The translations under genes were made by a program, and so were the position numbers. Source: Candidatus Omnitrophota bacterium (GTDB lineage Bacteria; Omnitrophota; Gorgyraeia; Gygaellales; Profunditerraquicolaceae). From it: a stretch of 33,353 bases of DNA. The DNA is taken from the NCBI GenBank assembly GCA_041651675.1, contig JBAZIT010000002.1, positions 1-33,353 on the forward strand, read 5' to 3'. Below the pieces are notes generated by a model. It saw only the letters and a program-made list of their open reading frames with translations. It had not been told where the DNA came from and ran no database searches. Positions 2,085-28,583 of the stretch are shown here, piece by piece (the stretch's first letter is position 1; every line of letters starts with the position of its first letter).

Positions 2085-2108
2085 AATCTTGCTCCGGATA
2101 AAAATAGC

Positions 2109-2155: not shown

Positions 2156-2276
2156 TGTTTTTTATTCGGCCCTCAATTTCAGGGCGCAGGAATAAGTTTG
2201 TAGTTCTCTTTAGCGCGCGGTCTGCATCTCCTTAAAGACACAGAATATCTGGCGCCTAGAGAAAAATAGAGAACTG

Positions 2277-2397
2277 CTTGCAGCAAAGACAACCCTCGCC
2301 GATATTGTTGCTGTTCCATCCGCTGTTGCAGCCTCCGCCCGGCGGTCGGAAGAAGTTGTTGTTGTCGTTGTTGTTGCAGTTGCCCCAGGAACCGAGA
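2277..2397 (-). repeat. DGR template repeat (TR)
   Basis: 121 nt matching VR 3522..3645. Read in the VR frame it encodes LGSWGNCNNNDNNNFFRPPGGGCNSGWNSNNIGEGCLCCK with 10 AAC codons. It begins 11 nt after the RT stop codon (2411..2409). Confidence 0.9.
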
Positions 2398-2408
2398 GGA
2401 CAACCTTG

Positions 2409-3464: not shown

Positions 3465-3518
3465 TCAAAAACCAAAAGATTTCAGATTCTCAGATACCAG
3501 ATACCAAAAAAACCTTAA

Positions 3519-4199
<681 letters not shown>

Positions 4200-7994: not shown

Positions 7995-9230
7995 TCAGCT
8001 CATAGCGCATGTCCCGCCGCCGAGTTTCGTTTTATACAAATTCCTGTTATAAGGCAGTTTCATCAGCAGCATGGCCATAAGGCAGGCATCGGTCAAGCCG
8101 GCAAAAATAAGGCCGCCGCTGACAAATAACGGAATAAAAATAAATGCCCAATGCACGAGCCAGGATAAAAGGATCCCCGACAACACCAGGCCGCCGGCAA
8201 TGATTCTGACCTGGCGCTCTAGCGATATGCCGCCTCCTCCCTTAATAACGGCTAGTCCCTCTTTTTTCCAGCGGGTTAAGCCTCCCTGCATCACCTTTAC
8301 CCCCTGCATCCCTGACTGTATCAGCATATCAGCTGCCATAGGAGAACGGTTACCAGTGCGGCAGAAGACGATAAAATTTTGTTTAGCTTGCACCAGCTCA
8401 TTAATTTTGGCGGAAAGCATGTCAATCGGGATATTGATCGCATCCTGGATATGTTCCTGGTTGAATTCCAGGGCTGAGCGCACATCTAAAAGCTTAGTTT
8501 GAGCGTCCTGCTCGATAAGCGCCAAGGCGTCTTTAGGAAAGACCATTTCTATTGCCAGGGCCTGGCCATTCTGGTTCACCCGCACTATGTTATCGATATT
8601 AAAAGGCTTGGGAATGATTTTAGAGCGCATATCCCGGACAAACCTCTCTTTATCGGATTCTCGCAAGTAGGGATTTGTCTTTTTCTCCTGAGCGATGTTC
8701 GAGGAAAACTTCCCGTGATAATCATGCCCGGGGAACACTACGGTCTCATCGCCAAGGGCCTTTAACCTCTGCAACGTATCAAACATTGATTCCGGAGAGC
8801 CGTTCTGGAAATCCGTGCGGCCGACACTGCCGATCAGAAGCACATCAGCCGTAAATAATTTTCCCTGAGCGTATAAACTTATAGCGTCATCAGTATGCCC
8901 CGGAGTATAAATAACCTTAACCCGGCTCGAACCCAGGAGGATCTCTTCGTTATCCTTTAAGCGCCTGTCGGCTACGCTGGAGATGGCTTTTTCGTGCATT
9001 AATACCGGCACCCCGAATTTCTTCTTTAATATCGCCGCCAGAGAAAAATGGTCGGCATGGGTATGCGTATCAACTATAAATCTGAGGTTTAGCTTTTTTT
9101 TCTTCAAGTAGCCCTCATACTCCTCCTGCAGGCTGATATGCGGATCAATAATCAGGGCCTCGCTTCCGGAGTTCAAAATATAAGAATAACAGCTTCCGGC
9201 TGAGAATTGTTTGGTTATCAGATTTTCCAT
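7995..9230 (-). CDS. MBL-fold (persulfide-dioxygenase-like) - rhodanese - YgaP-like membrane tail fusion protein
   Basis: An HTHADH metal motif and later GHD mark the MBL part. The rhodanese active-site loop is FCRTGNRS. The C-terminus has two hydrophobic helices (DUF2892/YgaP-like). Confidence 0.8.
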   Translation of the reverse strand: MENLITKQFSAGSCYSYILNSGSEALIIDPHISLQEEYEGYLKKKKLNLRFIVDTHTHADHFSLAAILKKKFGVPVLMHEKAISSVADRRLKDNEEILLGSSRVKVIYTPGHTDDAISLYAQGKLFTADVLLIGSVGRTDFQNGSPESMFDTLQRLKALGDETVVFPGHDYHGKFSSNIAQEKKTNPYLRESDKERFVRDMRSKIIPKPFNIDNIVRVNQNGQALAIEMVFPKDALALIEQDAQTKLLDVRSALEFNQEHIQDAINIPIDMLSAKINELVQAKQNFIVFCRTGNRSPMAADMLIQSGMQGVKVMQGGLTRWKKEGLAVIKGGGGISLERQVRIIAGGLVLSGILLSWLVHWAFIFIPLFVSGGLIFAGLTDACLMAMLLMKLPYNRNLYKTKLGGGTCAMS

Positions 9231-9233
9231 AAG

Positions 9234-9617
9234 CTATCCTCCTAACTTTATTTCTACTTCCGGGTCCTGTTTCAGAGTTTTATGCACCGGGCAATTTTTA
9301 ATAAACTCCAGCATAGCCTTAAGCCTGCGCTCATCCAATCCCAGGCCTTTTAAATCTATTTTTACATCTATCTTCCTGAAACAAACCGGCTCCTCCCTGC
9401 TAAAATCCGCGTCCACGCTTACCTGGAATTCCGGCAGAGCCAATTTTGCTCCTTCCGCGTACTTGCGCAAATATACTCCTATGCAGGAGCCGAGGCTGGC
9501 AAGCAATACCTCCGGCGGAGTAGCCCCCTGGCCTTTTGTGTCAATAATAAACTCGTAATCCCTGGCCTTAACTTTAAAAGAATAATCCCCGGCGTTGGTT
9601 ATATCTACGTGGTACAT
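9234..9617 (-). CDS. OsmC/Ohr-family peroxiredoxin-like protein
   Basis: 127 aa with LLASLGSCIG and NCPVHKTL, the two conserved Cys contexts of the OsmC family. Confidence 0.75.
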   Translation of the reverse strand: MYHVDITNAGDYSFKVKARDYEFIIDTKGQGATPPEVLLASLGSCIGVYLRKYAEGAKLALPEFQVSVDADFSREEPVCFRKIDVKIDLKGLGLDERRLKAMLEFIKNCPVHKTLKQDPEVEIKLGG

Positions 9618-9651
9618 TATCTACTCCTTCCGCTGTTTGCGTTACTCAGCA

Positions 9652-10755
9652 CTACTTAATATGGCAGGTTGACTTAATACCCTGTTTTTCATAATAACCC
9701 TGATGGTATTCTTCTGCTTTATAAAATTCCCTGGCCGGCATAATCTCCGTTACAACAGCTTTTTTAAATTTCCCCGACTTTTCTAATTTTTCCTTAGATC
9801 GGCGCGCAGCCTTTTCCTGGACAGAAGTAGAATAGAAAATCAAAGAGCGGTACTGGCTGCCTATATCCGGACCCTGCCTGTTGGGTGTAGTCGGGTCATG
9901 AATATCCCAAAAAACATCCAGCAGTTTTTCATAAGAGACTTGGTCCGGATCATATTCTACCTGCACTACCTCAGCGTGGCCGGTCTTGTCTGTGCCTACC
10001 TCTTTATAGGTGGGATTTTTTAATGTTCCGCCCATAAAACCAACGGTTGTGTTTACCACGCCTTTTACCTGGCGGAAAGCAGACTCTACTCCCCAAAAAC
10101 ATCCGGCCCCGAACACGGCGGTCTCGGTCTTAGGCTGGGTAGTAATATCCTTATTAAACAGGTATAGATATTCAGCGTAACCTTCTTTTTCCATATCCTC
10201 GGCCGGGACAAAACGCAAGCTTGCGGAATTAAGGCAATAACGTAATCCGGTAGGCTGAGGGCCATCTTCGAAGATATGCCCTAAATGAGAATCGCTGCTT
10301 TTAGAGCGCACTTCAGTCCTCTGCATTCCCTGGCTTTTATCCGTTTTTTCAACCACCTCATCTTTTCTGATAGGCCTGGTAAAGCTTGGCCAACCGGTCC
10401 CGGAATCAAACTTATCAATCGAACTAAAGAGCGGCTCTCCGGTAATCACATCCACATAAATCCCCGGGTGTTTATTATCCCAGTATTTGTTCTTAAAAGG
10501 GGCTTCCGTGCCGTTCTGACGCATAATCCGGTACTGCTCAGGAGTAAGAATTTTTTTCAACTCCTCATCTTTCAATGGAAGGCTGCAACCAGGTGCCGGG
10601 TTCCGCTTTTCTCGATTATTCTTGTCAGGCATAGGGAGGACCTCCATAGCTTGCGTTATTAACGCTAACCCAAAAGAGAATATTAAGGTAAATATAATAA
10701 TGCCTATGACCTTAGGCGTTATCTTGGGCATATCCTGTTTCCTCTCCGGCAACAC
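9652..10755 (-). CDS. msrAB: membrane-anchored bifunctional methionine sulfoxide reductase (MsrB domain then MsrA domain)
   Basis: The MsrB part shows [17 protein letters not shown] and [11 protein letters not shown]. The MsrA part shows GAGCFWGVE and [13 protein letters not shown]. There is an N-terminal TM helix. The true start may be the internal MPKITPK. Confidence 0.9.
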
Positions 10756-10921: not shown

Positions 10922-11434
10922 CTAAAATTTCTTTAAAAAACCGGATAGAGTTTCGATGATTGCCAGCGGGCTGGGCGGGCATCCCGGAATATGCAACATT
11001 ACCGGCAGGATACTGCTCACCGGGCCTTCCACATAATAAGAATCTTTGAATAAACCGCAGTTTAAAGCGCAATCTCCGCAAGTAATCACAAATTTAGGCT
11101 CGGGCATAGCGGCGTAGGTCTTTTTTAAAGCAATAAGCATGTTCTTCGATACCGGGCCGGTAACTAAAAGCGCATCGGCGTGGCGCGGGGAAGCCACGAA
11201 ATTGACGCCGAATCTCTGCAAGTCATAAATGGGATTATTCGACGCGATAATTTCCGATTCGCAAGCTCCGCAGGAACCTGTATCCACTTCGCGGATAGCC
11301 AGCGACCGGCCGAATTTCTTGCGGACTAGGAATCTCAACTCCGAGCCCGCGGAATCTATATCTCGGGCCAATTCCGGATGGATATGCCTGGTAACTATGC
11401 CTTTTAAAATCCTGCTTTTGAGTACCTCGATCAT
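10922..11434 (-). CDS. NuoB/HycG-like small subunit of a group-4-hydrogenase-related complex ([4Fe-4S] ligands retained)
   Basis: GSCGACESE, ASPRHADALLVTGPV, TCGDCALNCG and PGCPPSP are present, so all four cluster cysteines are there. Confidence 0.85.
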   Translation of the reverse strand: MIEVLKSRILKGIVTRHIHPELARDIDSAGSELRFLVRKKFGRSLAIREVDTGSCGACESEIIASNNPIYDLQRFGVNFVASPRHADALLVTGPVSKNMLIALKKTYAAMPEPKFVITCGDCALNCGLFKDSYYVEGPVSSILPVMLHIPGCPPSPLAIIETLSGFLKKF

Positions 11435-11437
11435 AAT

Positions 11438-13015
11438 TTATAAGTCATTCCCTGGATACGACAGATCAAAACTTTTATTACACAGCGGAAAATCCGGGAT
11501 AATATTCCCCAGGACAGCGTAAGCAAGCCCCTGCCAGTTAAGAAAAGAAGGGTCCGCGATCTTGCACCTGGCAATTAAACCATCGGGATTTATCTTTAAC
11601 CAGTATAAAACCGGGCCGCGCCAGGCCTCCGCATAACCCAGGCCGCTGCCTCCTTTTATCCCAGATGCAGCCATTGATTTTTCTCCCTGTTTAAGCCTGG
11701 CCGTAAACCCTTCGATCAGACGGCAGGATTCTGCGAATTCCAGGATCCTTAAATTCAAACGGGCCAAAACATCTCCGGATTGCCGGGTGATCATTTCAAA
11801 GTTGGCTTCCCTGTATACGCCAGGGAAATACTTCCGTAAATCAGCGGGAATGCCGCTGGCGCGGGCAACCAACCCGGACACGCCCAGGTCTTCGGCTGTC
11901 TTTCTTTTTAAAACTCCGGTACTATCCACTCTGTCCATAAAAGAAACGCTGGAGTTTAATATTTTAGCCAGTTCATCAAAATCCTGTTTTATACGCTTAA
12001 GAGAATCCCGGAGCTCCTTTTTCCCAGCTTCGTCAATATCCGTTAAAACTCCTCCTGCAGCATTAACTCTCCGCAAGTATCTATCCCCGGTAAGCCGGTC
12101 ATTCAATTGCAGGATCGCCTCTTTAATGATCGAGGCATAGGCAGAAGGAAAACTGAATCCTGCGTCAAGGGCTATACCGCCGATATCATTCACATGGTTA
12201 TACATACGCTCGAGCTCTAAAAAGATACCTCTTAAATAAGCTGCCTGCTTAGGAATCAATATGCCGGAGATCTTCTCTTGCGCCTGGATAAAGGCGAGGC
12301 TGTGCGCAAAACTTGCATCTCCGGAAACAGATTCGGACAGCCGAACAGCCTCCGAACAGAGCTTACCCTCAAAAAGCTTCTCTATGCCCCGATGCGTAAA
12401 ACCCAGCCTGGCCTCTAAGTTTATGATCGGCTCTCCGGCAACACTAAAACGAAAATGTCCCGGCCCGATAATACCGGCGTGCACCGGTCCCACCGGTACC
12501 TCAAATATCCCTTCTCCCTCTACCCGGTTAAAAACATAATCACTCAACTCCCCGGCTGGTATTTTCCGGAAATCCTTGCGTAAAGGATAATTCCCTTTTG
12601 GCCAAACCTCATCATGCAGCCTTAATCTCCTTAAATCCGGATTATCTTTAGGCTTTATGCCGAACATCTCCCAGATCTCTCTCTCAAAAAGACTGGCTGA
12701 ATACATGTTCCTGGCCAAAGAATCAAACTCCGGGCTTTCCCCCTGAATATCCCTGCTTACGGTGATCCAGCGGCTGTTTTGAAGATCCGCAAATACACAA
12801 TTAAGTAAAAATTTTCCGCTCTCTTCCCGTTCATCCAGCGCAAAAAGCAGCATTACCGGGGAAGCAAGGTTCTTATGCAAAATAAGGCAGATATCTTTAA
12901 AATCCTGGGGCCTGACCCTGATAGTAAGCTCATCCGGATAAGCCTCACCGATGGAGAGCGCCTCAAAACCAGGAAGTTCTCTTTTTATACTTGAAATAAT
13001 TTCTGAGCCAACCAT
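11438..13015 (-). CDS. fused NuoC-NuoD / HycE-like large subunit lacking the [NiFe] cysteine ligands
   Basis: Homology signatures are RLHDEVWPKGNYPLRKDF, VGPVHAGIIGPGHFRF and LGFTHRGIEKL. Where the CxxC motif should be, the sequence is ESVSGDASFAHS (12299..12334). The C-terminus is KSFDLSYPGNDL (11441..11476) instead of DPCxxCxxR. Confidence 0.85.
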   Translation of the reverse strand: MVGSEIISSIKRELPGFEALSIGEAYPDELTIRVRPQDFKDICLILHKNLASPVMLLFALDEREESGKFLLNCVFADLQNSRWITVSRDIQGESPEFDSLARNMYSASLFEREIWEMFGIKPKDNPDLRRLRLHDEVWPKGNYPLRKDFRKIPAGELSDYVFNRVEGEGIFEVPVGPVHAGIIGPGHFRFSVAGEPIINLEARLGFTHRGIEKLFEGKLCSEAVRLSESVSGDASFAHSLAFIQAQEKISGILIPKQAAYLRGIFLELERMYNHVNDIGGIALDAGFSFPSAYASIIKEAILQLNDRLTGDRYLRRVNAAGGVLTDIDEAGKKELRDSLKRIKQDFDELAKILNSSVSFMDRVDSTGVLKRKTAEDLGVSGLVARASGIPADLRKYFPGVYREANFEMITRQSGDVLARLNLRILEFAESCRLIEGFTARLKQGEKSMAASGIKGGSGLGYAEAWRGPVLYWLKINPDGLIARCKIADPSFLNWQGLAYAVLGNIIPDFPLCNKSFDLSYPGNDL

Positions 13016-14442
13016 ATTAAATCCTTTCCCGCATAAATCAATAACGCCCCTGAAACACAGACCAGGGAAAATAAGAACAAAAATGCCATTTTCCCGCTGA
13101 GCGGCTCCCCGCCTGCCTTCATCTCATTAGGGATATTGCCGAAAAGCATTTTCCCAAAATGATAAATGAATGCGGCAAAGATAACCGCCAGGAACAATAA
13201 TAATAAACCCGCCACAAGGTAAGAGCTGCTGGTAAAAGCAGCGATGATGATCATGATCTCGCTGAAGAATATGGAAAAAGGCGGCAAACCCGCCAGCGCA
13301 AAACAACCCAGGAGCACCATTATCCCCGTAAAAGGAAGCGCCTTAATTACTCCCCGGATAACATTCATATTATGTTCCCTGTAGACATTGACAATATTAC
13401 CCGCCCCGAAAAACATCAAGGATTTCGTTACCGCGTGGTTAAAAATATGGAACAGCGCTCCGGCTATGGCTAAAGGCGTTCCCAGGCCAAATCCGATCGA
13501 GATTATGCCGATATGCTCAATGCTGCTATAGGCCAGCAGGCGTTTTAAGTCTTTCTGGACCAGGATAAAACCGCTGGACACAATCAAAGAAATCACTCCC
13601 AGGAGGATCATTAAATGCGCGAAATACGCAAAACCCACTCCCTTGATCACAATAATGCCGAATCTCAAGATCGCGTAAATCGCGGTCTTTAGTAAAACTC
13701 CCGATAAGAGCGCGCTGATAGGAGCTACTGCCTGGCTGTGGGCATCCGGCAGCCAGGTATGCATAGGCGCTAAGCCCGCTTTTGTCCCGTAACCGACTAA
13801 AATAAAGATGAAAGCTGCCTTCAAGATATTCTTATCCAGGATATGGGCAACCGGGGCCATATCTGACCAGTTCAGGCTCTTAGAAAGACCGGAGATCGCA
13901 AAAGCGTAGGAAAAAAGGATCGTGCCCAGAAGCGCGAAGATTATCCCTACTGAACAGATAATGATATATTTCCAGGCGGCTTCCACAGATTCCTTCTTAT
14001 TGTAAAATCCCACCAGGAGCGCGGAAATAAGCGTGGTCATTTCAATCGCCACCCAGAGCATTCCCAGATTATTTACCGCCGGGACAAAAAACATTGAACA
14101 GCAGAATAAATTAAAAAAGAGATAATAGGCCCCGGCTTTCTTCTCCGAGATGACCCCCCTTCCCATCTCTCTTTTCAGATAACCGATGGAATATAATGCC
14201 GAGGCAAACGCAACAACGGAAATGACAAAAATAAAAAATACGCTCAAAGCATCCAGATAAATAAAGCTAAAACAGGCAATATCCCTTTTTAAAAATACAG
14301 CCTGTCTTAACAGTCCCGAGCTTAAACATAGAACTATCAGGTACCCGGCGCTATTAACAGCCCCGAACACATCCTTCTTTCGGACAACTAAGGCTGCCAG
14401 CGCAAGCAAGAGCGGGATCCCTAAAATAAAAAATATCGTCAT
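12985..14442 (-). CDS. NuoM/NuoN/HyfF-like antiporter-type membrane subunit
   Basis: 485 aa, polytopic, with conserved motifs of the Mrp/complex I antiporter-like family (GTKAGLAPMHTWLPDAH, LLAYSSIEHIG). It overlaps the next gene by 31 nt. Confidence 0.85.
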   Translation of the reverse strand: MTIFFILGIPLLLALAALVVRKKDVFGAVNSAGYLIVLCLSSGLLRQAVFLKRDIACFSFIYLDALSVFFIFVISVVAFASALYSIGYLKREMGRGVISEKKAGAYYLFFNLFCCSMFFVPAVNNLGMLWVAIEMTTLISALLVGFYNKKESVEAAWKYIIICSVGIIFALLGTILFSYAFAISGLSKSLNWSDMAPVAHILDKNILKAAFIFILVGYGTKAGLAPMHTWLPDAHSQAVAPISALLSGVLLKTAIYAILRFGIIVIKGVGFAYFAHLMILLGVISLIVSSGFILVQKDLKRLLAYSSIEHIGIISIGFGLGTPLAIAGALFHIFNHAVTKSLMFFGAGNIVNVYREHNMNVIRGVIKALPFTGIMVLLGCFALAGLPPFSIFFSEIMIIIAAFTSSSYLVAGLLLLFLAVIFAAFIYHFGKMLFGNIPNEMKAGGEPLSGKMAFLFLFSLVCVSGALLIYAGKDLIWLAQKLFQV

Positions 14443-14445
14443 AGT

Positions 14446-15081
14446 TTATCCTTTTAACTGCGAAAGCTTATTTACGTCAATGTGCGTAAAAAGCTTATTT
14501 ATCCGGTAGACAAAAATACCCATAATCAGCACGCTGATGAATACGTCCAGGAATATGGCGATCTCCACAAAAAAAGGCATTCCTCCGGTAACCGCCGAAG
14601 CAAAAAGAAAGATCCCGTTTTCCATCACCAGTATCCCGATTACCTGCGTAAATGCCCTCATCCGGGAGATCATCAGGAACGCGCCGATAAAAATAACCGA
14701 AAAAGCCACGCTCACCGCAGCTAACTGCAAAGGCCTCTGGCCAAATCCCAAATTCCCGGAGAGTACCCAGGAACAGTAAGTAAGCGCAAGCGCGCAAATA
14801 AGCGACAACTGGGGATTAACCAGCAGGCCCAGGTTCTCGTCAACCTTGATCTTTCTGGCAGTCAAATTCAGGAAATGCGGGATTAGAAAGAACTTCACCA
14901 GAAGGATCAACCCTGAGATAAAATATAACTCCATCTGCTTCTCTTTAAACGCGGCCAGGCCCGTTGCCAGGAAAAGGAATAACGATTGAAAGCGAAAACC
15001 GCGGATTAAAGCCGGGACCCTCTTAGCGATAACCATAAGATAAGTCAGGACTAAAACCGCAAATAATATCATTACCTGCAT
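14446..15081 (-). CDS. HyfE-like small membrane subunit
   Basis: 211 aa with about 6-7 TM helices, sitting between the NuoH-like and antiporter-like genes as in hyf operons. Confidence 0.65.
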   Translation of the reverse strand: MQVMILFAVLVLTYLMVIAKRVPALIRGFRFQSLFLFLATGLAAFKEKQMELYFISGLILLVKFFLIPHFLNLTARKIKVDENLGLLVNPQLSLICALALTYCSWVLSGNLGFGQRPLQLAAVSVAFSVIFIGAFLMISRMRAFTQVIGILVMENGIFLFASAVTGGMPFFVEIAIFLDVFISVLIMGIFVYRINKLFTHIDVNKLSQLKG

Positions 15082-15082
15082 A

Positions 15083-16006
15083 TTAAACTCCCAAGATCGC
15101 GCAGATGCTCGCGATTATTCCCAGCACAAAAGCAAAACCCAGGAAATCCGCTACCCTGAATAAGCGCATTTTGGCTACCGAAACCTCGACTACTGCCACG
15201 ATAGCCGCGACAATGACCAAACGCCCCAGATACCATGAGGACCAGAAAACTATCTCCGCCAGGCTTCCGGATACCGGCAGGCCAACCGGAAAAACGATCT
15301 GGGCGATAAGAAGAAAGAAGATCGTCTGCTTAACGTAAGCAGCCATTTCGATGAGAGCCAACGGCCTTCCCGAATATTCCAAAACCATTGCTTCATGCAC
15401 CATCGTCAATTCCAGGTGCGTTTCCTGATTATCCACCGGAATGCGCGCGGTTTCCGCCAGCGCGATCAGGAATAAAGCCGCTCCCGCGATAATCGAAGAA
15501 GCCTGCACCCCGGAAACAGCGCCGAATGCCGCCAGACTGGTTGAGCCGCTCCTTAAAGATATGGAAAATACCACTAAACAAAGCGCAGGTTCAACCAGGC
15601 TGGAGATGAACATCTCTCTTGATGAGCCCAGTCCGCCGAAAGAACTCCCCGTATCTAACGCTGCCAGCGCCAGGAAAAAGCGGCCTAAAGCCAGGATAAA
15701 TATCAAAGCCAGAAGATCTCCCAGGTAATTCAGGGGAGTATAAAATATGAACACCGGAATAAGTAAAGCAGCGCACAAAGTAGAACCAAGAACGACAAAA
15801 GGAGCAGCCTGGAATATCCAGGAAGCGGTATCGGAAACCACCTCCTCTTTCAAGAATAACTTGGACAGGTTATAATAAGGTTGCCAGATGCTCTGGCCTT
15901 TGCGCAGGCGCAGGGAATTTTTTATTTTAGTAATCAGCCCGCTCAACAAAGGGGCAGCAGCCATAAAGAAAACCAGCTGCAATAATATAAAATATATTTT
16001 ATTCAT
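15083..16006 (-). CDS. NuoH/HycD-like membrane subunit
   Basis: 307 aa, polytopic, with the motif context ETARIPVDNQETHLELTMVHEAMVLEYSG typical of HycD/NuoH. Confidence 0.8.
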   Translation of the reverse strand: MNKIYFILLQLVFFMAAAPLLSGLITKIKNSLRLRKGQSIWQPYYNLSKLFLKEEVVSDTASWIFQAAPFVVLGSTLCAALLIPVFIFYTPLNYLGDLLALIFILALGRFFLALAALDTGSSFGGLGSSREMFISSLVEPALCLVVFSISLRSGSTSLAAFGAVSGVQASSIIAGAALFLIALAETARIPVDNQETHLELTMVHEAMVLEYSGRPLALIEMAAYVKQTIFFLLIAQIVFPVGLPVSGSLAEIVFWSSWYLGRLVIVAAIVAVVEVSVAKMRLFRVADFLGFAFVLGIIASICAILGV

Positions 16007-16007
16007 T

Positions 16008-17843
16008 TTAAAATTTAGGCATAAAAATTATCAATAATAATACTGTCGCGAATATATACGCCAGGTACAGATGGATACTGCCCGGCTGGATCCGGCGCAT
16101 AAACTTAGCCGCCCTGATCACCAGGCCTACCAGCGGCTGATAAATGTATTTTCTGAATACCGGCGTAGTATGCGTTTCATAGGTAAAAGACTTAACATGG
16201 TAAAATGATTCCCGGACCTTCTGGGTCTTACGGTAAGGCAAAAGAAAAAAACTAAAGGCGATACGGAACGGCTTGGAAAAGGCTGTCGCGGTATATTCAT
16301 TGCGCGCATTCAGTTTGTAATAACCGCAATCCCAGGTGTTCAACATTACCGCTTTTTTACGGCCGGTTAACCGGTACACAACCAGGCCCGCAATACCCAG
16401 CGCGATCAAAGCCAAAGCCAACCAGGGAGTAGAAAGATAAACGCCTTGTCCGGCTTGCGGGCTTAAGATGAAATTGTTCAGGGAGAATTTCATACTGCTT
16501 ATATCAATGCCGGTTACGCTCCCGGTAATCTTTGCTAACAATTTTATAATCCAGGCGGCTAGTAACCCGAAAATAACGGCCAAAAGCGCTAAGAAAAACA
16601 TGCCTGCCCGCATAGATAAAGGGACTTCCTGCGCGGATCTGGCGTAATTACTCCTGGGGAGAGCCAGGAAGGTTACCCCAAAAGCTTTGACAAAACAAGC
16701 AGCTGCCAAGCCGCTGGTTAAAGCTAACAAGCTGGCGCAAACTCCCAGAAAAAGCTTGGTCCCCCCGGCCACTTGAAAAGCCCCCAAAAAGAAAGCCTGT
16801 AAAGTCAGCCATTCGCTGACAAAGCCATTTAAAGGCGGCAAAGCTGAAATGGCCATTGCGCCGATCAGAAAATAAAGCGCGGTCTGCGGCATTTTTTTGA
16901 TCAGGCCTCCTAATTTTTCAATATCGCGCGTGCCGGTCGCCTTGTAAACGCTTCCAGCGCATAAAAACAAAAGGCCTTTAAAGATCGCGTGATTTACTAA
17001 GTGGTACAAACCGGCAATCAGGGAAAAAACCGCCAGGTACGGTAAATTTAAACTGATAAAGAACATGGCCAGCCCTACCCCTAACAAAATTATTCCTATA
17101 TTTTCCACGCTGTGATAGGCCAGGAGTTTTTTAAGGTCATGCTCCATAAGCGCATAAATAACACCTACCAGGCAGGAAATCAGCGCGAGGATGAGAACTA
17201 AGATCCCCCACCAGGAAGAATTTACTCCGAGGATGAAGATCACAAACCGGATTATCCCGTAAATGGCGGTTTTGATCATTACGCCGGACATAAGGCTTGA
17301 GATATGGCTCGGCGCCTGCGGATGAGCATAAGGCAGCCAGATATGCAACGGGACTATACCGGCTTTAGTCCCGAAACCGATCAGGAGCAGCAGGAATACG
17401 ATATTTCTAACCTGAAGAGGCATTGACCGGCAGGCCTCTTTAATCGCCAGGAAATCAAATGCCTGCGCGTATTGATACATAATCATGAATGCCGCTATTA
17501 AAAAAGCTGTTCCAATATGCGTCATGATTATATAAATCGCTCCGGCCTGAATGGATTTGTCGTGCGCGGTATCAAAAACCACCAGAAAATAAGAAACCAG
17601 GGACATTATCTCCCAGACAATAAGAAAAATTAAGGCGTTAGCCGCGGTAACCACCGCCGCCATGGATAAAACAAAAATAATCAACAGAAACCAGGCCAGG
17701 ATTATCTTGGCAGGCGAATATTCCCCCTTGAGATAACTGAAAGAATAAACAGCTGAAGGCAGTGAAACAATGAAGATAACGGAAAGGAAAAATACGGCGA
17801 GCGGATCGAATAAAAAAAACTGTTTGGGGAAAAGATTTAACAT
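16008..17843 (-). CDS. NuoL/HyfB/HycC-like antiporter-type membrane subunit
   Basis: 611 aa with GTKAGIVPLHIWLPYAHPQAPS and LLAYHSVENIG motifs. It is the first gene of the cluster. Confidence 0.85.
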   Translation of the reverse strand: MLNLFPKQFFLFDPLAVFFLSVIFIVSLPSAVYSFSYLKGEYSPAKIILAWFLLIIFVLSMAAVVTAANALIFLIVWEIMSLVSYFLVVFDTAHDKSIQAGAIYIIMTHIGTAFLIAAFMIMYQYAQAFDFLAIKEACRSMPLQVRNIVFLLLLIGFGTKAGIVPLHIWLPYAHPQAPSHISSLMSGVMIKTAIYGIIRFVIFILGVNSSWWGILVLILALISCLVGVIYALMEHDLKKLLAYHSVENIGIILLGVGLAMFFISLNLPYLAVFSLIAGLYHLVNHAIFKGLLFLCAGSVYKATGTRDIEKLGGLIKKMPQTALYFLIGAMAISALPPLNGFVSEWLTLQAFFLGAFQVAGGTKLFLGVCASLLALTSGLAAACFVKAFGVTFLALPRSNYARSAQEVPLSMRAGMFFLALLAVIFGLLAAWIIKLLAKITGSVTGIDISSMKFSLNNFILSPQAGQGVYLSTPWLALALIALGIAGLVVYRLTGRKKAVMLNTWDCGYYKLNARNEYTATAFSKPFRIAFSFFLLPYRKTQKVRESFYHVKSFTYETHTTPVFRKYIYQPLVGLVIRAAKFMRRIQPGSIHLYLAYIFATVLLLIIFMPKF

Positions 17844-17863
17844 TTAAAGGGTTTAGCCTCTAT

Positions 17864-17912
17864 AAAAAAAAGAAACCTTCATTGGCCAGTAAAATAACCA
17901 ATAAAGGTTTCT
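17864..17912 (-). terminator. hairpin plus U-tract between rubrerythrin and the complex operon
   Basis: Arms 17871..17885 and 17898..17912 form 15 bp with one mismatch and a 12-nt loop. On the minus strand 8 T follow. The element ends only about 20 nt upstream of ATG 17843. Confidence 0.5.
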
Positions 17913-18009
17913 CGTTGTTTTTTTAGCCCAGACCCACCTTAAAACTCGGAACTAAATTTTACAAAAATAGTATACCACTTCTTCCGTTAAAATCAAGCTA
18001 TTCTGTATT

Positions 18010-18588
18010 TTAATAATTCTCCGCCAGTAATTCGTAAAACGACTGCGGGTGTTTGCAGGCAGGGCATTGCTTCGGAGCTTCGCTGCCTTCGGAAACATAG
18101 CCGCAGTTAAGGCAGTGCCATTTTACCGGCGCCTTTTTCTTGAACACCTCTGCTTTGGCGACATTATTAATCAATTTTCTGTATCTGGCTTCATGGAACT
18201 TCTCTACCTTGGATATCTGCTCAAAAGAACTCGCTACCTCGGGGAACCCCTCAATTTCCGCGGTCTTGCCAAAGTCCGAATAAAGAGTAGTCCACTCCAT
18301 ATTTTCTCCGGCAGCAGCCTCTTCCAGGTTGGTCTTGGTATCTTTGATCATCCCTGCAGGGTAGGAAGCAGTAATCTCCACGTCTCCGCCTTCAAGATAC
18401 TTAAAAAATACCTTAGCGTGCTCTTTCTCGTTCTCCGCGGTCTCCATAAAGATATTGGCGATCTGCTCAAAGCCTTCTTTGCGCGCGGCGCTGGCAAAAT
18501 ACGTATAGCGATTGCGCGCCTGCGCTTCTCCGGCAAACGCCGCCAGGAGATTCTTTTCTGTCTTAGTGCCCTTAATTGATTTACCCAT
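18010..18588 (-). CDS. rbr: rubrerythrin
   Basis: The ferritin-like di-iron region reads [23 protein letters not shown]...[10 protein letters not shown]. The C-terminal rubredoxin-like domain has CLNCGY...CPACKHP. GGAGGA RBS precedes ATG 18588, so the track's 15-aa N-terminal extension is unlikely. Confidence 0.92.
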
Positions 18589-18601
18589 CAGCCCTTCCTC
18601 C

Positions 18602-18727
18602 TTATCCTTCGATTTTTTCCATAGGCTTCTCACAACAAACTAATTCACCTCCGCCTACTTTAGTCACCACTACCTCATTCCCGCATACGCTGCAACGGTA
18701 TTTTTCGCCTGTATTTTTAACACCCAT
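18602..18727 (-). CDS. desulforedoxin-like small iron protein (41 aa)
   Basis: Not in the ORF track. Sequence is [41 protein letters not shown], which has the CxxCGN...CC pattern of desulforedoxin. AAGGAG lies 6 nt upstream of ATG 18727. Confidence 0.75.
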
Positions 18728-21558: not shown

Positions 21559-22971
21559 CTAGGTTATCCTCCTGGCCCTTTGGTATTGGTTATGCTCCTT
21601 GATCCCTCTTAAGAAAGTGTATGTCCCTACTAACTTAGCCGCGGAGATTACCCATCTGTACCACAAATATTCAGTAAGGCTCAGGAACATAAGATACGCC
21701 GTATAACCCAACGGAAACAACCTCTGGACGCGGACGAAGGAAAATATGGAAAAGATCGAAGTGACCGCCTGGGTCAGGGTCATAAGCAAAGCAAATAAAA
21801 GAAAAACCTTTATGTCGAGCAAGCCGGACAGCCACCCCAGGCCGATAAAAAATATCCCGGCGAGCTCAAAAAACACCCCCAAGACCTCGTAAAGAAGAAA
21901 GTACGGCAGAGTAAGGAAGGCGAAAACGCCAAAACGCGGATTAAGGATCATGTATTTATAGTGGGCCACGGTCTCGTTGGTGACCCTCTGCCAGCGGCTG
22001 CGCTGCGAGATAATTGAAGAAACGCTGCTTGGGCCTTCAGTCCAGCCTACCGAATACGGCAGCATGACTATGCGGTAATCTTTATCTTTGTTCTTTACCA
22101 AATAGTCGTGGGCGCGGAAAGTAAATTCAATGTCTTCGCAGGTAAAATCCGCCGAGAAACCTCCTAACTCGTATAAAATATCCCGGCGCCACATGCTGAA
22201 TCCGCCCGCCACAACCGGCATAGCGTTATACTTGCTTAGACCGATGCGGTTGCCGATGAACGAACGGATATACTCCAGGTTTTGATAAGCGATCAGGGGA
22301 TTGAGGGAAAAACGCTTCTCCAGGATCCTGCCGTCCTTGATCCTTAGGTCGTTGGAAAGCCCGAAATAGCTGCCTATTCCTATAATCTTGTCCGGATCCC
22401 TGCCGACATGCGCCATTACTTTAAGCAGCGCGTTCTGCTCTAAGACGGTATCAGCATCCACCACGCACACATATTCATTTCTGGCAAAATTAAGCCCGGC
22501 ATTAACCGCTCCCGCCTTCTTTAAACCCTTATCCTTGCTGATCACCGTAACATTGGGGTATTTCGTGCTTTTAAATATAGTGCGGATAACGCCGTCTTTA
22601 TAATGCTTTATATACGGCATATCCAGGGGCTTTGACTCCAAGATCTTATTCACAATCTCCAGGGTATTATCCTGCGAATCATCATCAACGATAATTACCT
22701 CAAATTTAGGATAATTAAGGTTAAGGATGGATAATAAGGCGTCGGCGATCCAGCCCTCCTCATTTCTGGCTGGCATGATAATACTGACGGATAAAGCGTT
22801 ACTGGCCAGGTAGGCCAGGGGATAATCTTCTGTCCGGCTCTCCCAGGACCTTTTCCTGCCTTCGATATAACCAAGAGCCGCTAGAAAAAGATAAAAAGCG
22901 CTAAGGAACAAAAAATAAGCGAAGAAAAAAATAAAAATAAAATAAGTAAAATTAGCGATAAATACAGCCAT
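21559..22971 (-). CDS. processive family-2 glycosyltransferase (PgaC/YaiP/cellulose-synthase-like polysaccharide synthase)
   Basis: N-terminal TM helices, then VDDDSQD, VVDADT, GGFSMWRR and the QRSRWQRV (QxxRW) motif, followed by C-terminal TM helices. Confidence 0.85.
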   Translation of the reverse strand: MAVFIANFTYFIFIFFFAYFLFLSAFYLFLAALGYIEGRKRSWESRTEDYPLAYLASNALSVSIIMPARNEEGWIADALLSILNLNYPKFEVIIVDDDSQDNTLEIVNKILESKPLDMPYIKHYKDGVIRTIFKSTKYPNVTVISKDKGLKKAGAVNAGLNFARNEYVCVVDADTVLEQNALLKVMAHVGRDPDKIIGIGSYFGLSNDLRIKDGRILEKRFSLNPLIAYQNLEYIRSFIGNRIGLSKYNAMPVVAGGFSMWRRDILYELGGFSADFTCEDIEFTFRAHDYLVKNKDKDYRIVMLPYSVGWTEGPSSVSSIISQRSRWQRVTNETVAHYKYMILNPRFGVFAFLTLPYFLLYEVLGVFFELAGIFFIGLGWLSGLLDIKVFLLFALLMTLTQAVTSIFSIFSFVRVQRLFPLGYTAYLMFLSLTEYLWYRWVISAAKLVGTYTFLRGIKEHNQYQRARRIT

Positions 22972-22976
22972 ATTAA

Positions 22977-24260
22977 TCAGTCCTTGCGGCCGGCGATACC
23001 TCGTTCCAAAGTATCCGCCGCCTGCTCGTCTATATTCCTTATGATGTCCAGCATCTTGCCCTGTTCCTCTCCCGGTAGGCCTAATAACGCTGCTCCGAGC
23101 CCAGCATAAGCGCAGGAGACGATTAACCCCTTTAACAGGAACTCTGCCGCCTCTTTTTCCTTCTTGGATCTGGACAAGATCTCCTTAAACAGCTTAATGA
23201 TGTAGCCGGATTCCTCCAGCGCCTCAACGGATATCCTCCTGGCCATTTCATCGTCACCATACAGAAAATCCTCCGCATAAGAAAGGCATATTTCTATGTT
23301 CGCGGCCATCAGGAATTTAACGCTTTCTATGACCGAAAGAGAACCGTCATTGATCCTGCCCATGATCTGAGGCAGACCTTCTTTACCTAAAACTTTAAAA
23401 AGGGACTTGACTGCGCAAACCCTGACCTTCCAAAAATCATCGGTAAGGCATTTCGTAATAATGCTCGCTGAATCTCGGCTGCCGAACTCCCCCAAACAAT
23501 CGCAGGCTGAAGCGCGCACTTCCGCGGATTTATCCCCGGTCAGCTCCTCAATCTTTTGGCGATACTGCAAGGCCTTAAGCCTTCCGATGAGCTTGACTGC
23601 CCAACTCCTGACCTCCGGGTCAGGGCTGGCGGTTAATCCAATGGCCTTGACCGCTATTTCCGGCGGGAATGATTCTAAGAGCGAAAATATCCGGTAGCGG
23701 TAAAAAGAACGCTTTTCTATAAAATCCAAAAGGATGCCGGCAGACAGAGCACTCCTGATCTGCCCAAGCGCAAGGATCGAAAAATATGCGATATCAGCGT
23801 CCCTATCGTTAATTGTTCTTTGAAGGGTATCTAAAGATGCGGCGGCCTGCGCATACCCCAGAGTTAAAATGGCTTCGATACGGCGCCATTTATTCCAGGA
23901 GAATAGAGCTGTTTTTTCTATCTTTGCGATCTTTTCGGCTGAAACAAAACAACTCTTCAGGATTTCCTGCTCTGATTCATTAAAAAAAACTATCTCCCTG
24001 TTCCTGTTGGTAGTCACATCGAGGAATTGCTGCGGAGTAACTCCGGAGACTGACGCTAAGCAGGCCTCATTATCCGCTTCTTTCCCGGAGAGCACCAGCT
24101 CATAAACATTGCTCTTTATATTCAGTAAGGCGCGGTTACGCCTTTTCCAGGAGTATTCTCTGGCCAGCGAATAAAAAATAGTCAATAACCCCGCCGCGGC
24201 GACCAGATAAAGAAGTATTTTATCAATAGCCCAGATTAATTCCGGATAATAGTTGTGCAT
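22977..24260 (-). CDS. membrane-anchored HEAT-repeat protein
   Basis: N-terminal TM helix. Repeated PDPEVRSWAVKLIG, SAEVRASACDCLG and DDFWKVRVCAVKSL units are of the HEAT/PBS-lyase type. Confidence 0.7.
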   Translation of the reverse strand: MHNYYPELIWAIDKILLYLVAAAGLLTIFYSLAREYSWKRRNRALLNIKSNVYELVLSGKEADNEACLASVSGVTPQQFLDVTTNRNREIVFFNESEQEILKSCFVSAEKIAKIEKTALFSWNKWRRIEAILTLGYAQAAASLDTLQRTINDRDADIAYFSILALGQIRSALSAGILLDFIEKRSFYRYRIFSLLESFPPEIAVKAIGLTASPDPEVRSWAVKLIGRLKALQYRQKIEELTGDKSAEVRASACDCLGEFGSRDSASIITKCLTDDFWKVRVCAVKSLFKVLGKEGLPQIMGRINDGSLSVIESVKFLMAANIEICLSYAEDFLYGDDEMARRISVEALEESGYIIKLFKEILSRSKKEKEAAEFLLKGLIVSCAYAGLGAALLGLPGEEQGKMLDIIRNIDEQAADTLERGIAGRKD

Positions 24261-25097
24261 TTAGAATTTCAGCGATAAAGAAGTGTTAATACTGCGTTTA
24301 ATAAAATCGGGTTTTTCTGTTCCGTAGGAATAACCGACCCTGGCAATAGCCCAGGGGCAAACATTGAAGTTCAGCCCCCCAAAAACTATATATCCGGACT
24401 GATCGCGGGACGGAAGCTCAAAGATATCGTAAAGCCGCTCTCCTACCGCTGCCCCTAAAGAAAGGGCAAGGCGCTTGGTTAGCGCGAAGTTCCCCTTGAC
24501 CGTGCCGAATTGCGCCGTGCCCCGGCTTTCAGTAAGAGATAAACCGTAATCAACGCTGATATAATTATCCCCGAAATAATAGATCAACCCCGGATAAACC
24601 ATATGCGTATCGTTCTCAGAGTAATCCCGGTAATTATACCCTACCTGCCAAAAAAGATTTTTATGGAGGCGATGTCCGTATTCAATTATCGACTGGAGCT
24701 TATACATATAAGTAATATCCCAACCCCAGCCTCCTTCGATATGCGCATAAGAATTCGGGAAATTCATATAAGCCCCAAAGTTAGCGGTATAATTATTAAC
24801 ACTAAACCGGTTCCATTGAGAAATAGTACCGTACGCCTGGATATTGCGGTATTTATAGCCTATGCGGTTGGTAATCTCTCTCCATCTCCCGGGCCGCGAA
24901 CCCTGGATCACCTTGCTTCCTTCATAGTAAGAATCCCAAAAGAACTCCCCCTTTTCCCTGGCCTTCTCTTCCGGCACAACCTCAGGCCTCGGGATAGGGG
25001 CCCTTAATAGCTGTTCGGTCTGGGCTTCGCCGGCCGCATAAATCAGCGCAGGCCACCAGAGTATCGCAATAAAAATAAAGCTGATACATTTCTTCAT
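24261..25097 (-). CDS. outer-membrane beta-barrel protein (YaiO-like)
   Basis: Signal peptide, alternating aromatic/Gly-rich beta-strand pattern, and a C-terminal ...SLSLKF with terminal Phe. Confidence 0.65.
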   Translation of the reverse strand: MKKCISFIFIAILWWPALIYAAGEAQTEQLLRAPIPRPEVVPEEKAREKGEFFWDSYYEGSKVIQGSRPGRWREITNRIGYKYRNIQAYGTISQWNRFSVNNYTANFGAYMNFPNSYAHIEGGWGWDITYMYKLQSIIEYGHRLHKNLFWQVGYNYRDYSENDTHMVYPGLIYYFGDNYISVDYGLSLTESRGTAQFGTVKGNFALTKRLALSLGAAVGERLYDIFELPSRDQSGYIVFGGLNFNVCPWAIARVGYSYGTEKPDFIKRSINTSLSLKF

Positions 25098-25477
25098 TTC
25101 TTGTACTTCTCCGCTATCCCCAGGGTCACATTGATATTATCTATTTCGGACTGTAGATCGCCGGTCTTCAGGATAAATCCGGAGGCGTTAAATTGATTCG
25201 CCGCCTTAAACCGCTCTTCATTGCTGAAAGCCGTGATGATGAATATGGGTATTTTCTGGTCTTCTTTTCTTATCTCCCTTAAAACCTCCAGGCCGTTTAT
25301 CTCCGGCATCATTACGTCCAGGATAAGCGCGTCGGGTTTTTCCCGCCGGAATTTTTCCAAAGCCTCCCGGCCGTTCATCGCGGTGACCACGTTATAGCTG
25401 TTAGCCTCTAACCGCGCCTTCAATAACTGCAAAAAATCTATCTCGTCATCTACCAGCAATACTTTTTTCTTTGCCAT
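25094..25477 (-). CDS. single-domain response regulator (CheY-like receiver)
   Basis: VLLVDDE, LILDVMMP, IITAF and FILKT are present, so all receiver signature residues are there. Confidence 0.9.
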   Translation of the reverse strand: MAKKKVLLVDDEIDFLQLLKARLEANSYNVVTAMNGREALEKFRREKPDALILDVMMPEINGLEVLREIRKEDQKIPIFIITAFSNEERFKAANQFNASGFILKTGDLQSEIDNINVTLGIAEKYKK

Positions 25478-25494
25478 AAAAAATCCTTATCCAC

Positions 25495-28568: not shown

Positions 28569-28583
28569 CTTGGCCCCTTTGCT

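Follow-up and report, generated by a model that had tools for sequence, protein, structure and literature searches.

A conserved six-gene cassette of the Ehr/Hyq kind, without [NiFe] ligands in its large subunit, in an uncultured Omnitrophota bacterium

The subject of this study is a six-gene operon on a 33,353-nucleotide stretch of DNA from an uncultured Candidatus Omnitrophota bacterium (contig JBAZIT010000002.1, positions 1 to 33,353), to which we refer as the window in the following. Near-identical DNA is present in metagenomes from wastewater, landfill, groundwater and anaerobic digesters, and the RNA runs covered by our survey contain none of the sequence. The operon encodes relatives of the Hyf/Hyc subunits of group 4 [NiFe] hydrogenases, but its large subunit has lost every cysteine of the NiFe site; complexes of this kind are known as Ehr (energy-converting, or Ech-, hydrogenase-related) or Hyq. 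The six open reading frames (ORFs) lie head to tail on the minus strand between positions 10922 and 17843, with intergenic gaps of 1-4 nt and a single 31-nt overlap, which the start of the large-subunit gene shares with the end of the hyfF-like gene. In operon order, they are:

16008-17843, minus strand: HyfB/NuoL-like antiporter-like subunit, 611 aa, first gene of the operon (NCBIfam, Pfam and PDB matches)
15083-16006, minus strand: NuoH/HycD-like membrane subunit, 307 aa (Pfam NADHdh, E 4e-34)
14446-15081, minus strand: HyfE-like membrane subunit, 211 aa (NCBIfam NF008556, below cut-off)
12985-14442, minus strand: HyfF/NuoM-N-like antiporter-like subunit, 485 aa (NCBIfam HyfF NF005044)
11438-13015, minus strand: large subunit, a fused NuoC+NuoD/HycE-like (HyfG-like) protein, 525 aa (Pfam, HycE alignment)
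10922-11434, minus strand: small subunit, NuoB/HycG/MbhJ-like, 170 aa (Pfam Oxidored_q6, E 6e-27)

A preliminary description of the locus, made without database searches, had recognized a Hyf/Hyc-like order of six subunits, and our Pfam and NCBIfam searches uphold both its coordinates and its gene content. All six products score below the curated cut-offs of equivalog-level NCBIfam models, in the case of the Nuo models far below, and the sole model that is passed, narrowly, is the NuoB 'subfamily' model (117 vs 116 bits). The enzymes named here are therefore relatives, not orthologs, of the six proteins.

The large subunit starts with a NuoC-like domain (approximately residues 1-155), which is followed by a NuoD/HycE-like domain; in Pfam, it matches Complex1_30kDa (PF00329), Complex1_49kDa (PF00346) and the N-terminus of NiFeSe_Hases (PF00374). 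With HMMER, it aligns end to end with E. coli HycE (7z0s_E, E 1e-61), which places SESVSGDASFAHS opposite HycE SDRVCGICGFAHS and KSFDLSYP opposite HycE GSLDPCYS. Where the L1 motif of the hydrogenases is R-x-C-G-x-C-x-x-x-H, the protein reads ESVSGDASFAHS, and where their L2 motif is D-P-C-x-x-C, it reads FDLSYPGNDL. An independent MAFFT alignment of 130 cluster representatives, 20 of which have all four cysteines (CCCC in the following), gives the same picture: the four NiFe ligand positions are changed from Cys to Ser231, Ala234, Ser519 and Gly522. The complete loss of the [NiFe] cysteines, as first read from a hand alignment, is thereby established, and the concern that a CxxC motif might have been mis-registered can be laid to rest, as the HMMER register is identical and reveals no hidden CxxC. 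The chain stops three residues past Gly522, so that it also lacks a cleavable tail, as had been noted from its L2 end.

The residues that replace the ligands follow a pattern of their own. Cysteine-less proteins read E-R-[IV]-S-G-D-x-[ST]-x-x-H at L1, where hydrogenases read E-R-x-C-G-x-C-x-x-x-H, and K-S-F-N-L-S-Y-x-G-x-D-L at L2, where hydrogenases read K-S-F-E-L-C-Y-x-C-x-D-R; nearly all remaining residues of the hydrogenase scaffold are common to these proteins and the 20 CCCC relatives. Among 120 close relatives, 110 of the 525 columns of the large subunit are invariant, including Ser519, Tyr520, Gly522 and Asp524, and Gly232 and Asp233 are each kept in 119. In 100 cysteine-less representatives of clusters formed at 50% identity, Asp233 is found in 85%, Ser519 in 89% and Gly522 in 91%. 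Given this conserved replacement motif, the NiFe pocket was remodelled and did not decay, and the invariant columns, with pocket residues among them, reflect purifying selection on a working protein. Judging from the alignments, the cassette and its remodelled pocket (Ser231-Gly-Asp233 ... Ser519-Tyr-x-Gly522-x-Asp524) are under strong purifying selection, and a pocket whose former NiFe site carries a conserved motif should be functional.

An AlphaFold2 model of the large subunit has a mean pLDDT of 94.9, and its sole low-confidence segment, residues 178-183, is the β1-β2 loop, which is a mobile coupling element in complex I. In Foldseek, the top match of this model is HycE (7z0s_E; TM-scores 0.95/0.94, root-mean-square deviation 2.1 Å, 30% identity), followed by E. 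coli NuoCD (TM-scores 0.89/0.80, 20% identity); on the sequence level, the similarity to MbsL (E 1e-22) is much weaker than that to HycE. The Nqo4 quinone ligands Tyr87 and His38 align with Gly232 and Ile183 in HMMER, in a loop whose register is uncertain by 1-2 residues, and the same alignment places no His or Tyr of the large subunit near these positions. Position 184 is Gly in 118 of the 120 members of the Omnitrophota clade, whereas a loop Glu is found there in 96% of Ehr proteins and in 95% of the related hydrogenases; from the alignment, we infer this Glu to be the one that transfers protons in the [NiFe] 'L0' motif. At position 229, most of the family has Arg and 104 of 120 clade members have Cys, whereas the window protein alone has Ser. 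We also considered a Zn site of the β-carbonic-anhydrase type within the pocket, since Cys229 and Cys512 are common in the clade, but rejected it, as residue 229 is Ser here and the spacing does not fit CxDxR.

The small subunit has cysteines at positions 55, 58, 119, 122, 126 and 152. In alignments, Cys55, Cys58, Cys122 and Cys152 occupy the positions of the cluster ligands in MbhJ, HycG and mitochondrial NDUFS7, and in agreement with the preliminary description, the protein is predicted to retain the ligand set for one [4Fe-4S] cluster. Its motif is the CxxC of hydrogenases, not the tandem CC of complex I, and it consists of an Oxidored_q6 domain only, with no fused 2x[4Fe-4S] domain. Of 102 small subunits from the family, 97 have all four N2-type cysteines.

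The genomic context of the nearest true hydrogenases bears on the missing NuoI/HycF-type subunit. In the two closest ones that we placed in context, on a Planctomycetota metagenome-assembled genome (MAG) and on a metagenome contig, the genes follow the order B-C-E-F-G, and the small subunit, 240-263 aa in length (240-265 aa in their clade), unites a 2x[4Fe-4S] ferredoxin domain and a NuoB-like domain in one fusion protein (Fer4-NuoB). As this fusion stands in for the separate HycF/NuoI subunit in the closest true hydrogenases and in part of Ehr, the missing NuoI/HycF of the window would be a lost fusion domain. Within the cysteine-less family, the small subunit takes three forms: one with the ferredoxin domain (e.g. 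in loci L059, L075 and L077), a long one in which the canonical motif is absent, and a short one of about 170-180 aa, to which the window protein belongs. A few relatives have also lost their cluster ligands. Examples of the fusions, and of the small subunits without ligands, are:

L056, 12080-12871: Fer4-NuoB fusion small subunit (in these and other loci, the fusions span 240-355 aa)
L057, 8773-9495: Fer4-NuoB fusion small subunit
L059, 11561-12373: Fer4-NuoB fusion small subunit
L058, 3993-4517: small subunit without [4Fe-4S] cysteines, altered motif TCDD
L061, 4434-4946: small subunit without [4Fe-4S] cysteines, altered motif NCGD
L089, 1068-1607: small subunit without [4Fe-4S] cysteines, altered motif SCDD
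L107, 1143-1679: small subunit without [4Fe-4S] cysteines, altered motif TEGD

The last four complexes should be cofactor-free, since their iron-sulfur (FeS) cysteines are lost. In all four cassettes, the small-subunit gene comes first. The cassette of L058 adjoins DabA/DabB, two SulP transporters and Mrp genes, that of L061 two β-carbonic-anhydrase-like genes, SatP and a CLC channel, and that of L107 genes of an F-type ATP synthase. The ligand motifs of the family thus describe a putative series of cofactor loss, from NiFe and three clusters, via three clusters (L059) and one cluster (window), to none (L058, L061, L089 and L107).

The HyfB-like protein matches NCBIfam HyfB (NF005086, E 1e-192, profile positions 76-666), and its best PDB match is HycC (7z0s_C, E 1e-78). 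It is short by about 65-75 N-terminal residues compared with HyfB and keeps the NuoL-type C-terminal extension; its Omnitrophota orthologs mostly have 610-618 aa, with some ORF calls of up to 635 aa, and more distant relatives have 640-694 aa. The HyfF-like protein matches NCBIfam NF005044 (E 7e-134) and, in the PDB, MbsH and MbhH. In the HyfB-like and HyfF-like proteins, respectively, the channel residues are a Glu in transmembrane helix (TM) 5 (WEIMSL, AIEMTT), a Lys in TM7 (GTKAG in both), a Lys in TM8 (IKTAIY, LKTAIY), a Lys in TM11 (HAIFK, HAVTK) and a Glu in TM12 (FVSEW, FFSEI). Both antiporter-like subunits retain the ion-path residues of complex I, Mrp and the membrane-bound hydrogenase MBH, and their channels are apparently competent. 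The NuoH-like subunit, which connects the peripheral and membrane arms, matches HycD best (7z0s_D, E 4e-33) and MbhM next, and retains the acidic residues of the ETARIPVD...HE...EYSG stretch. Finally, the HyfE-like protein matches the NCBIfam hydrogenase-4 membrane subunit NF008556 with an E-value of 9e-21, below the cut-off; its C-terminal half is NuoK-like, with a weak Pfam Oxidored_q2 match over residues 125-211, and its gene occupies the same position in all related loci.

Beyond these six proteins, Pfam scans of the other ORFs in the window yielded no member of the Hyp, HycI, HycB, FdhF or NuoI families, and a search of all six reading frames of the whole window yielded no CxxCxxCxxxC ferredoxin motif, which agrees with the earlier statement that NuoI/HycF-type, HycB/FdhF-type, hyp and hycI genes are lacking. 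Likewise, the operon includes no gene for a NuoI-like subunit or an electron-input module, be it in the window or in the 46 related genomes; the preliminary description had named the presence of such genes as grounds to refute its view. The complex I set is incomplete: NuoA, J, N, I, E, F and G were not found in the window, and the subunits that would complete a set of at least 11 are absent both from the window and from the flanks of related loci. The operon is not an Mrp antiporter either: MrpA/D-like and MrpC(NuoK)-like parts are present, but NuoH-, NuoCD- and NuoB-like subunits are encoded as well, and MrpB, E, F and G of the seven-subunit MrpA-G set were not found in the operon.

The closest relatives of the large subunit, with full-length identities of 67-80%, all come from Candidatus Omnitrophota MAGs, and the nearest relatives that we found outside this phylum come from Margulisiibacteriota (57% identity). 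The six-gene order of the cassette is shared by 46 Omnitrophota/Margulisiibacteriota genome loci, with 48-82% identity per subunit. The flanking genes are unrelated among these loci, and the cassette therefore appears to be a self-contained unit. Its only recurrent neighbor is a DMT_6/DUF486 membrane protein encoded after the small subunit, which is found in 13 loci and absent from the window. The window cassette itself is flanked upstream by rubrerythrin (18010-18633, minus strand) and downstream by an MsrB-MsrA fusion, OsmC and a metallo-β-lactamase-fold/rhodanese/YgaP-like protein (7995-10755, minus strand). We considered these oxidative- and sulfur-stress genes as partners and rejected them, as related genomes do not keep the association; only two other loci have a rubrerythrin gene within 10 kb of the cassette. 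A link to formate dehydrogenase (FDH) or NuoEF was rejected as well, since only a few loci have NuoE/F/HydABC-like genes after the cassette, and the window has none. In one Omnitrophota genome (L007/L054, 12205-21578), the genes for a Rex-like redox-sensing repressor and two NuoE/NuoF/[FeFe]-hydrogenase (HydABC-type) gene sets come after the cassette, and NuoF- or GltD-like genes lie near the cassette in four further loci.

On a larger scale, an exhaustive HMMER search of 1.84 billion cluster representatives returned 904 clusters (50% identity) with E-values of up to 1e-30 to the large subunit, a count that includes true hydrogenases and NuoD relatives. Approximately 100 of the best 130 full-length representatives lack the NiFe cysteines. 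The cassette is found in Nitrososphaerota, in the great majority of 80 diverse metagenome contigs, and on replicons of cultured Paraburkholderia, Rhodococcus, Cupriavidus, Sinorhizobium, Rhizobium and Azospirillum. The large-subunit homologs of cultured organisms are 37-41% identical to the window protein and cysteine-less, with motifs of the SGD and LSYxGxD type; for Paraburkholderia and Rhodococcus, we checked directly that the large subunit is cysteine-less and that the small subunit is short and has four cysteines. Names retrieved for distant-relative clusters comprise one Nitrososphaerota and one Planctomycetota. The neighbors of diverse Ehr loci, in raw counts, include NtrC-type sigma-54 activators (14), ArsR-type regulators (7) and SulP transporters (6).

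In a neighbor-joining tree of 125 cluster representatives, built with a distance method only and without support values, the CCCC proteins group in a single clade, and the cysteine-less proteins, among them the window protein, in a single superclade; the phylogenetic placement that had been suggested as a check thus points the same way as the motifs. The cysteine-less clade appears in this tree as the sister of true hydrogenases with the same gene order, which probably correspond to HydDB group 4f.

The operon is preceded by a leader of its own, whose elements are:

17862-17996, minus strand: promoter-like site and conserved 5' leader (promoter/terminator scan, box conservation)
17996-17969, minus strand: sigma-70-like promoter match TTGATT-16-TATACT, with TG before the second hexamer (extended -10)
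17952-17928, minus strand: invariant 25-nt box GTTCCGAGTTTTAAGGTGGGTCTGG
17913-17870, minus strand: 19-bp hairpin, followed by a T-run to about 17863 (terminator scan)

The order from the rubrerythrin stop codon at 18010 is promoter, box, A-rich linker, hairpin, ribosome-binding site and the ATG at 17843. Eighteen Omnitrophota loci that differ in their upstream genes (the window and L001, L002, L004-L007, L011, L012, L015, L017, L018, L021, L024, L027, L037, L044 and L132) each have a single copy of the box, about 95 nt ahead of the start of the hyfB-like gene, so that the leader belongs to the operon and is not merely the terminator of the rubrerythrin gene. The hairpin is invariant at its base; towards the top it varies, and seven pairs show compensatory changes. 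A search of Rfam gave no match for the leader, with only sub-threshold hits at chance level (best PyrR, E 0.029). An antiterminator pairing of the box with the terminator was considered and rejected, as we found at most five complementary bases by eye, and RNAfold predictions of truncated leaders gave no consistent alternative structure. From its layout and conservation, the leader looks like a candidate transcription attenuator or riboswitch-like element. If the leader is a sensor, finding out what it senses would be the least costly way to learn what the complex does.

Ehr was first noted in Geobacter sulfurreducens (GSU0739-0745), reportedly in the mid-2000s. The class comprises relatives of group 4 hydrogenases without NiFe whose function is unknown (PMC6349859, PMC10284858, PMC10432482, PMC4758237), and its definition is credited to Marreiros et al. 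2013 in the papers that cite it (PMC4758237, PMC6349859). It has been reported from Margulisbacteria, Saganbacteria and Melainabacteria, where a pairing of FDH with Ehr is speculative (PMC6349859), from CPR (candidate phyla radiation) bacteria (PMC7304191), from comammox Nitrospira, where it is placed near group 4f (PMC10284858), and from ammonia-oxidizing archaea (PMC10432482). The role presumed for it is a cytoplasmic redox reaction coupled to charge translocation (PMC6349859, PMC10284858, PMC10432482, PMC7304191), and in Geobacter, the levels of EhrA, C, L and S are higher on formate (PMC7894505). Both ehr and hyq are listed as lacking NiFe ligands (PMC4758237). Among the papers covered by our literature search, none reports a structure or an enzymatic characterization of an Ehr complex.

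The features that define this class are found together in the window: a large subunit homologous to those of group 4 and to NuoD, no CxxC, the joint presence of NuoB-, NuoH- and Mrp/NuoL-M-like subunits, and a position among the cysteine-less proteins of the tree. Since the literature describes the same NiFe-less group 4 relatives, the operon belongs to a kind that is already known, and its membership in the Ehr/Hyq class, taken alone, is very likely. This also bears out the earlier verdict of an Ehr-type complex rather than a hydrogenase, which the HycE-like sequence and fold, the loss of the NiFe cysteines, the tree and the published definition all favor. Within the class already described, the window operon has the form with a short small subunit and a single cluster, along with some clade-specific changes.

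These changes emerge from a comparison with the individual systems. The Geobacter Ehr complex, compared here by its published description only, shares the NuoB-, NuoH-, HyfE- and NuoL/M-like subunits (PMC7894505) and the lack of CxxC, and the report of the class in Margulisbacteria (PMC6349859) matches our nearest relatives outside Omnitrophota. Unlike other Ehr, the Omnitrophota clade has a shortened HyfB N-terminus, Gly184, mostly Cys229 (Ser229 in the window) and its own leader, and in contrast to what was proposed for Riflemargulisbacteria with FDH-Ehr, no formate dehydrogenase or NuoE/F genes are linked to the window operon. HyqBCEFGI of Azorhizobium caulinodans has the same six proteins in the same order, including a NuoC::NuoD fusion of about 505-525 aa and, in HyqI, a small subunit of about 170-180 aa with CxxC...C...C ligands (PMC3357923); equivalents of the Hyq cluster are found on rhizobial, Cupriavidus, Burkholderia/Paraburkholderia and Rhodococcus replicons. 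While an activator of transcription of its own, HyqR, belongs to the Hyq operon (PMC3357923), the window operon has none, and NtrC-type activators are common beside diverse Ehr cassettes. Furthermore, the proteobacterial and actinobacterial forms keep Glu184, where the window protein has Gly184, and the hosts of Hyq are aerobes or microaerophiles with quinones, whereas the window organism comes from anoxic wastewater, landfill and groundwater samples.

With the Hyf-like CCCC sister clade, E. coli formate hydrogenlyase and hydrogenase-4, the operon shares the gene order, all membrane subunits and the fold of the large subunit, and with the CCCC clade also the scaffold residues Arg312, Arg362, Asp415, Arg419, Glu463 and Asp524. 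Unlike group 4 hydrogenases, it has no NiFe ligands, no 2x[4Fe-4S] relay, no HycB/FdhF module and, in the window, no maturation genes. Complex I and the MBS/MBX complexes resemble it in their NiFe-free NuoD-like subunit next to an N2-type cluster, their NuoH-like coupling subunit, the Lys/Glu pattern of their antiporter-like subunits and a disordered β1-β2 loop. With its six subunits, the operon contrasts with complex I, which has 11-14, and with MBS, which has 13 (6U8Y structure); it also lacks a NuoI-like relay, and the quinone-ligand positions of complex I are Gly and Ile. The view of the preliminary description that the complex is intermediate between group 4 hydrogenases and complex I finds no support in the residues, as it has no quinone ligands and its small subunit has CxxC, not the CC of complex I.

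In our preferred interpretation, the operon encodes an Ehr/Hyq-type six-subunit, complex-I-like membrane machine that descends from a group 4 Hyf/4f-type [NiFe] hydrogenase and works as an ion translocator via ferredoxin-type redox chemistry; for class and mechanism together, we put the probability at about 0.6. As it cannot bind the NiFe cofactor, such a complex would neither make nor consume H2. H+ or Na+ would cross the membrane through the HyfB-, HyfF-, HyfE- and HyfC-like subunits, and this movement would be driven by, or would drive, a redox change at the single cluster. A soluble low-potential carrier, for instance ferredoxin, could reduce the cluster directly, docking at the site of the lost HycF-like domain, and electrons from the cluster may pass to an acceptor within the cavity that the large, small and NuoH-like subunits enclose. 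The β1-β2 loop, which is flexible, would then signal the event to the membrane arm, as it does in complex I and membrane-bound hydrogenases.

Several observations weigh against this interpretation. To our knowledge, a single cluster without a wire is unprecedented among characterized relatives. In none of the 46 close loci does the operon come with genes for an electron donor, acceptor or relay, which leaves oxidoreductase turnover unsupported by context. The quinone ligands of complex I are not present in the large subunit as aligned, and the Omnitrophota clade has Gly184 in place of the near-universal Glu of the β1-β2 loop. Lastly, four relatives have lost their FeS cysteines, and three of these adjoin DabAB/SulP/Mrp, β-carbonic-anhydrase or ATP synthase genes; at least part of the family therefore works without redox chemistry.

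The main alternative, conceivable though rather unlikely, is that the complex is a redox-independent ion machine, in which the peripheral arm forms a structural or regulatory cap and the FeS cluster serves as a structural element or a redox sensor. Such a machine could be a secondary cation/proton antiporter, or it could couple an ion gradient to a non-redox reaction in the Ser/Asp pocket; a candidate reaction is the vectorial hydration of CO2, by analogy with DabAB and with cyanobacterial NDH-1 with CupA. The stepwise loss of cofactors across the family fits this idea, as do the intact channel residues of both antiporter-like subunits and the disappearance of the loop Glu184 from the Omnitrophota clade. 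Genomic context speaks for it as well, since three of the four cluster-free cassettes lie beside DabAB/SulP/Mrp, β-carbonic-anhydrase-like or ATP synthase genes, and a SulP transporter lies near the cassette in six diverse loci, sometimes directly downstream and on the same strand. However, this neighborhood signal consists of raw counts from a handful of loci, and no inorganic-carbon or ion genes lie beside the cassette in the 46 Omnitrophota/Margulisiibacteriota loci. Moreover, the four cluster cysteines are found in every Omnitrophota locus examined, with all five exceptions in non-Omnitrophota loci, and their retention in 97 of 102 small subunits would be hard to explain if the cluster were dispensable. 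The pocket also has no conserved ligand set of the Zn type.

A more far-reaching version, which we regard as improbable, holds that Ehr complexes are not oxidoreductases at all: the Ser-Gly-Asp / Ser-Tyr-x-Gly-x-Asp pocket would be a new catalytic or ion-binding site, and the single cluster of the Omnitrophota form would be a redox gate, not an electron conduit. If this were true, the pocket could serve vectorial CO2 hydration or cation handling, and the leader could be a riboswitch-like sensor of the species that is transported or converted.

A third alternative is a hydrogenase with a non-canonical site, as proposed for the Azorhizobium caulinodans HyqBCEFGI 'endo-hydrogenase'. Deletion of hyqRBCEFGI is reported to affect the recycling of nitrogenase-derived H2 and microaerobic H2 evolution (PMC2650096, PMC3357923); the subunit set and order agree with those of the window operon, and three of the four cysteines quoted for HyqI (55, 58 and 152) match, with cys-112 there vs Cys122 here. 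This evidence is genetic and physiological, not enzymatic, and in the words of the Hyq authors, the catalytic site 'remains speculative' (PMC3357923), while later work lists hyq and ehr without NiFe ligands (PMC4758237). In the window protein, Ser, Ala, Ser and Gly stand in for the four cysteines that hold NiFe(CO)(CN)2 in every known [NiFe] hydrogenase, the chain has no cleavable tail past L2, and the window has no hyp or hycI genes. This explanation is therefore very improbable, and on the evidence of its sequence, the hydrogenase activity claimed for Hyq is not credible for the window complex.

That the operon is a partial or degenerate respiratory complex I, or the decaying remnant of a hydrogenase operon, is suggested by the public names of its orthologs ('NADH-quinone oxidoreductase subunit C' at NCBI, 'Ni,Fe-hydrogenase III large subunit' at JGI) and by PF00346, a complex I marker in one Omnitrophota survey (PMC10066038), but is the least tenable explanation of all, given only six subunits without NuoA, J, N, I, E, F and G, equivalog Nuo models far below their cut-offs, a sequence and fold nearer to HycE, HycD, HycC and MbhJ than to Nuo subunits, the lack of a quinone-ligand Tyr/His, a CxxC instead of CC in the small subunit and, as to decay, ORFs that are intact, more than 100 relatives with identities of 67-80% and pocket residues that do not vary.

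The remainder of the window contains two further groups of genes, both on the minus strand. The first is a diversity-generating retroelement at 1743-4199, in which the differences between the template and variable repeats are T-to-C/G on the plus strand and hence adenine-specific on the coding strand. Its parts are:

1743-2084, minus strand: bAvd accessory gene
2109-2265, minus strand: RT-14 RNA (RF02921)
about 2272-2397, minus strand: template repeat
2409-3464, minus strand: reverse transcriptase
about 3517-3645, minus strand: variable repeat, at the C-terminal end of an unannotated 226-aa ORF (3519-4199)

The second is a block of signaling and polysaccharide genes at 21559-32687. It encodes a 1367-aa PAS/GAF histidine kinase, three receiver-domain proteins, one of them fused to an NAD-dependent epimerase/dehydratase, a CofD-family protein, a YaiO-like β-barrel, a HEAT-repeat protein and a family-2 glycosyltransferase.

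For a specialist, the occurrence of an Ehr cassette in this window is unsurprising, but the class as a whole is a genuine and long-standing puzzle. Ehr/Hyq complexes are widespread, with representatives in Omnitrophota, Margulisbacteria, ammonia-oxidizing archaea, rhizobia, Cupriavidus and Rhodococcus, and there are cultured carriers of close architectural equivalents, candidates being Paraburkholderia aromaticivorans pBN1 (CJU94_RS33270-33295), Cupriavidus metallidurans CH34, Geobacter sulfurreducens (GSU0739-0745) and Azorhizobium caulinodans (AZC_4355-4360). This matters for the interpretation of genomes: as the survey mentioned above took PF00346 as its marker of respiratory complex I and the Ehr large subunit carries this domain, Ehr cassettes could be counted as complex I there, and since the public names of these proteins refer to complex I or Ni,Fe-hydrogenase, uncultured lineages can be wrongly credited with respiration or H2 metabolism. 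To the known picture of the class, our analysis adds a conserved replacement motif at the former NiFe site, the recognition of the missing NuoI-type module as a lost fusion domain within a graded loss of FeS clusters across the family, and a leader common to Omnitrophota operons, which may report what the complex responds to.

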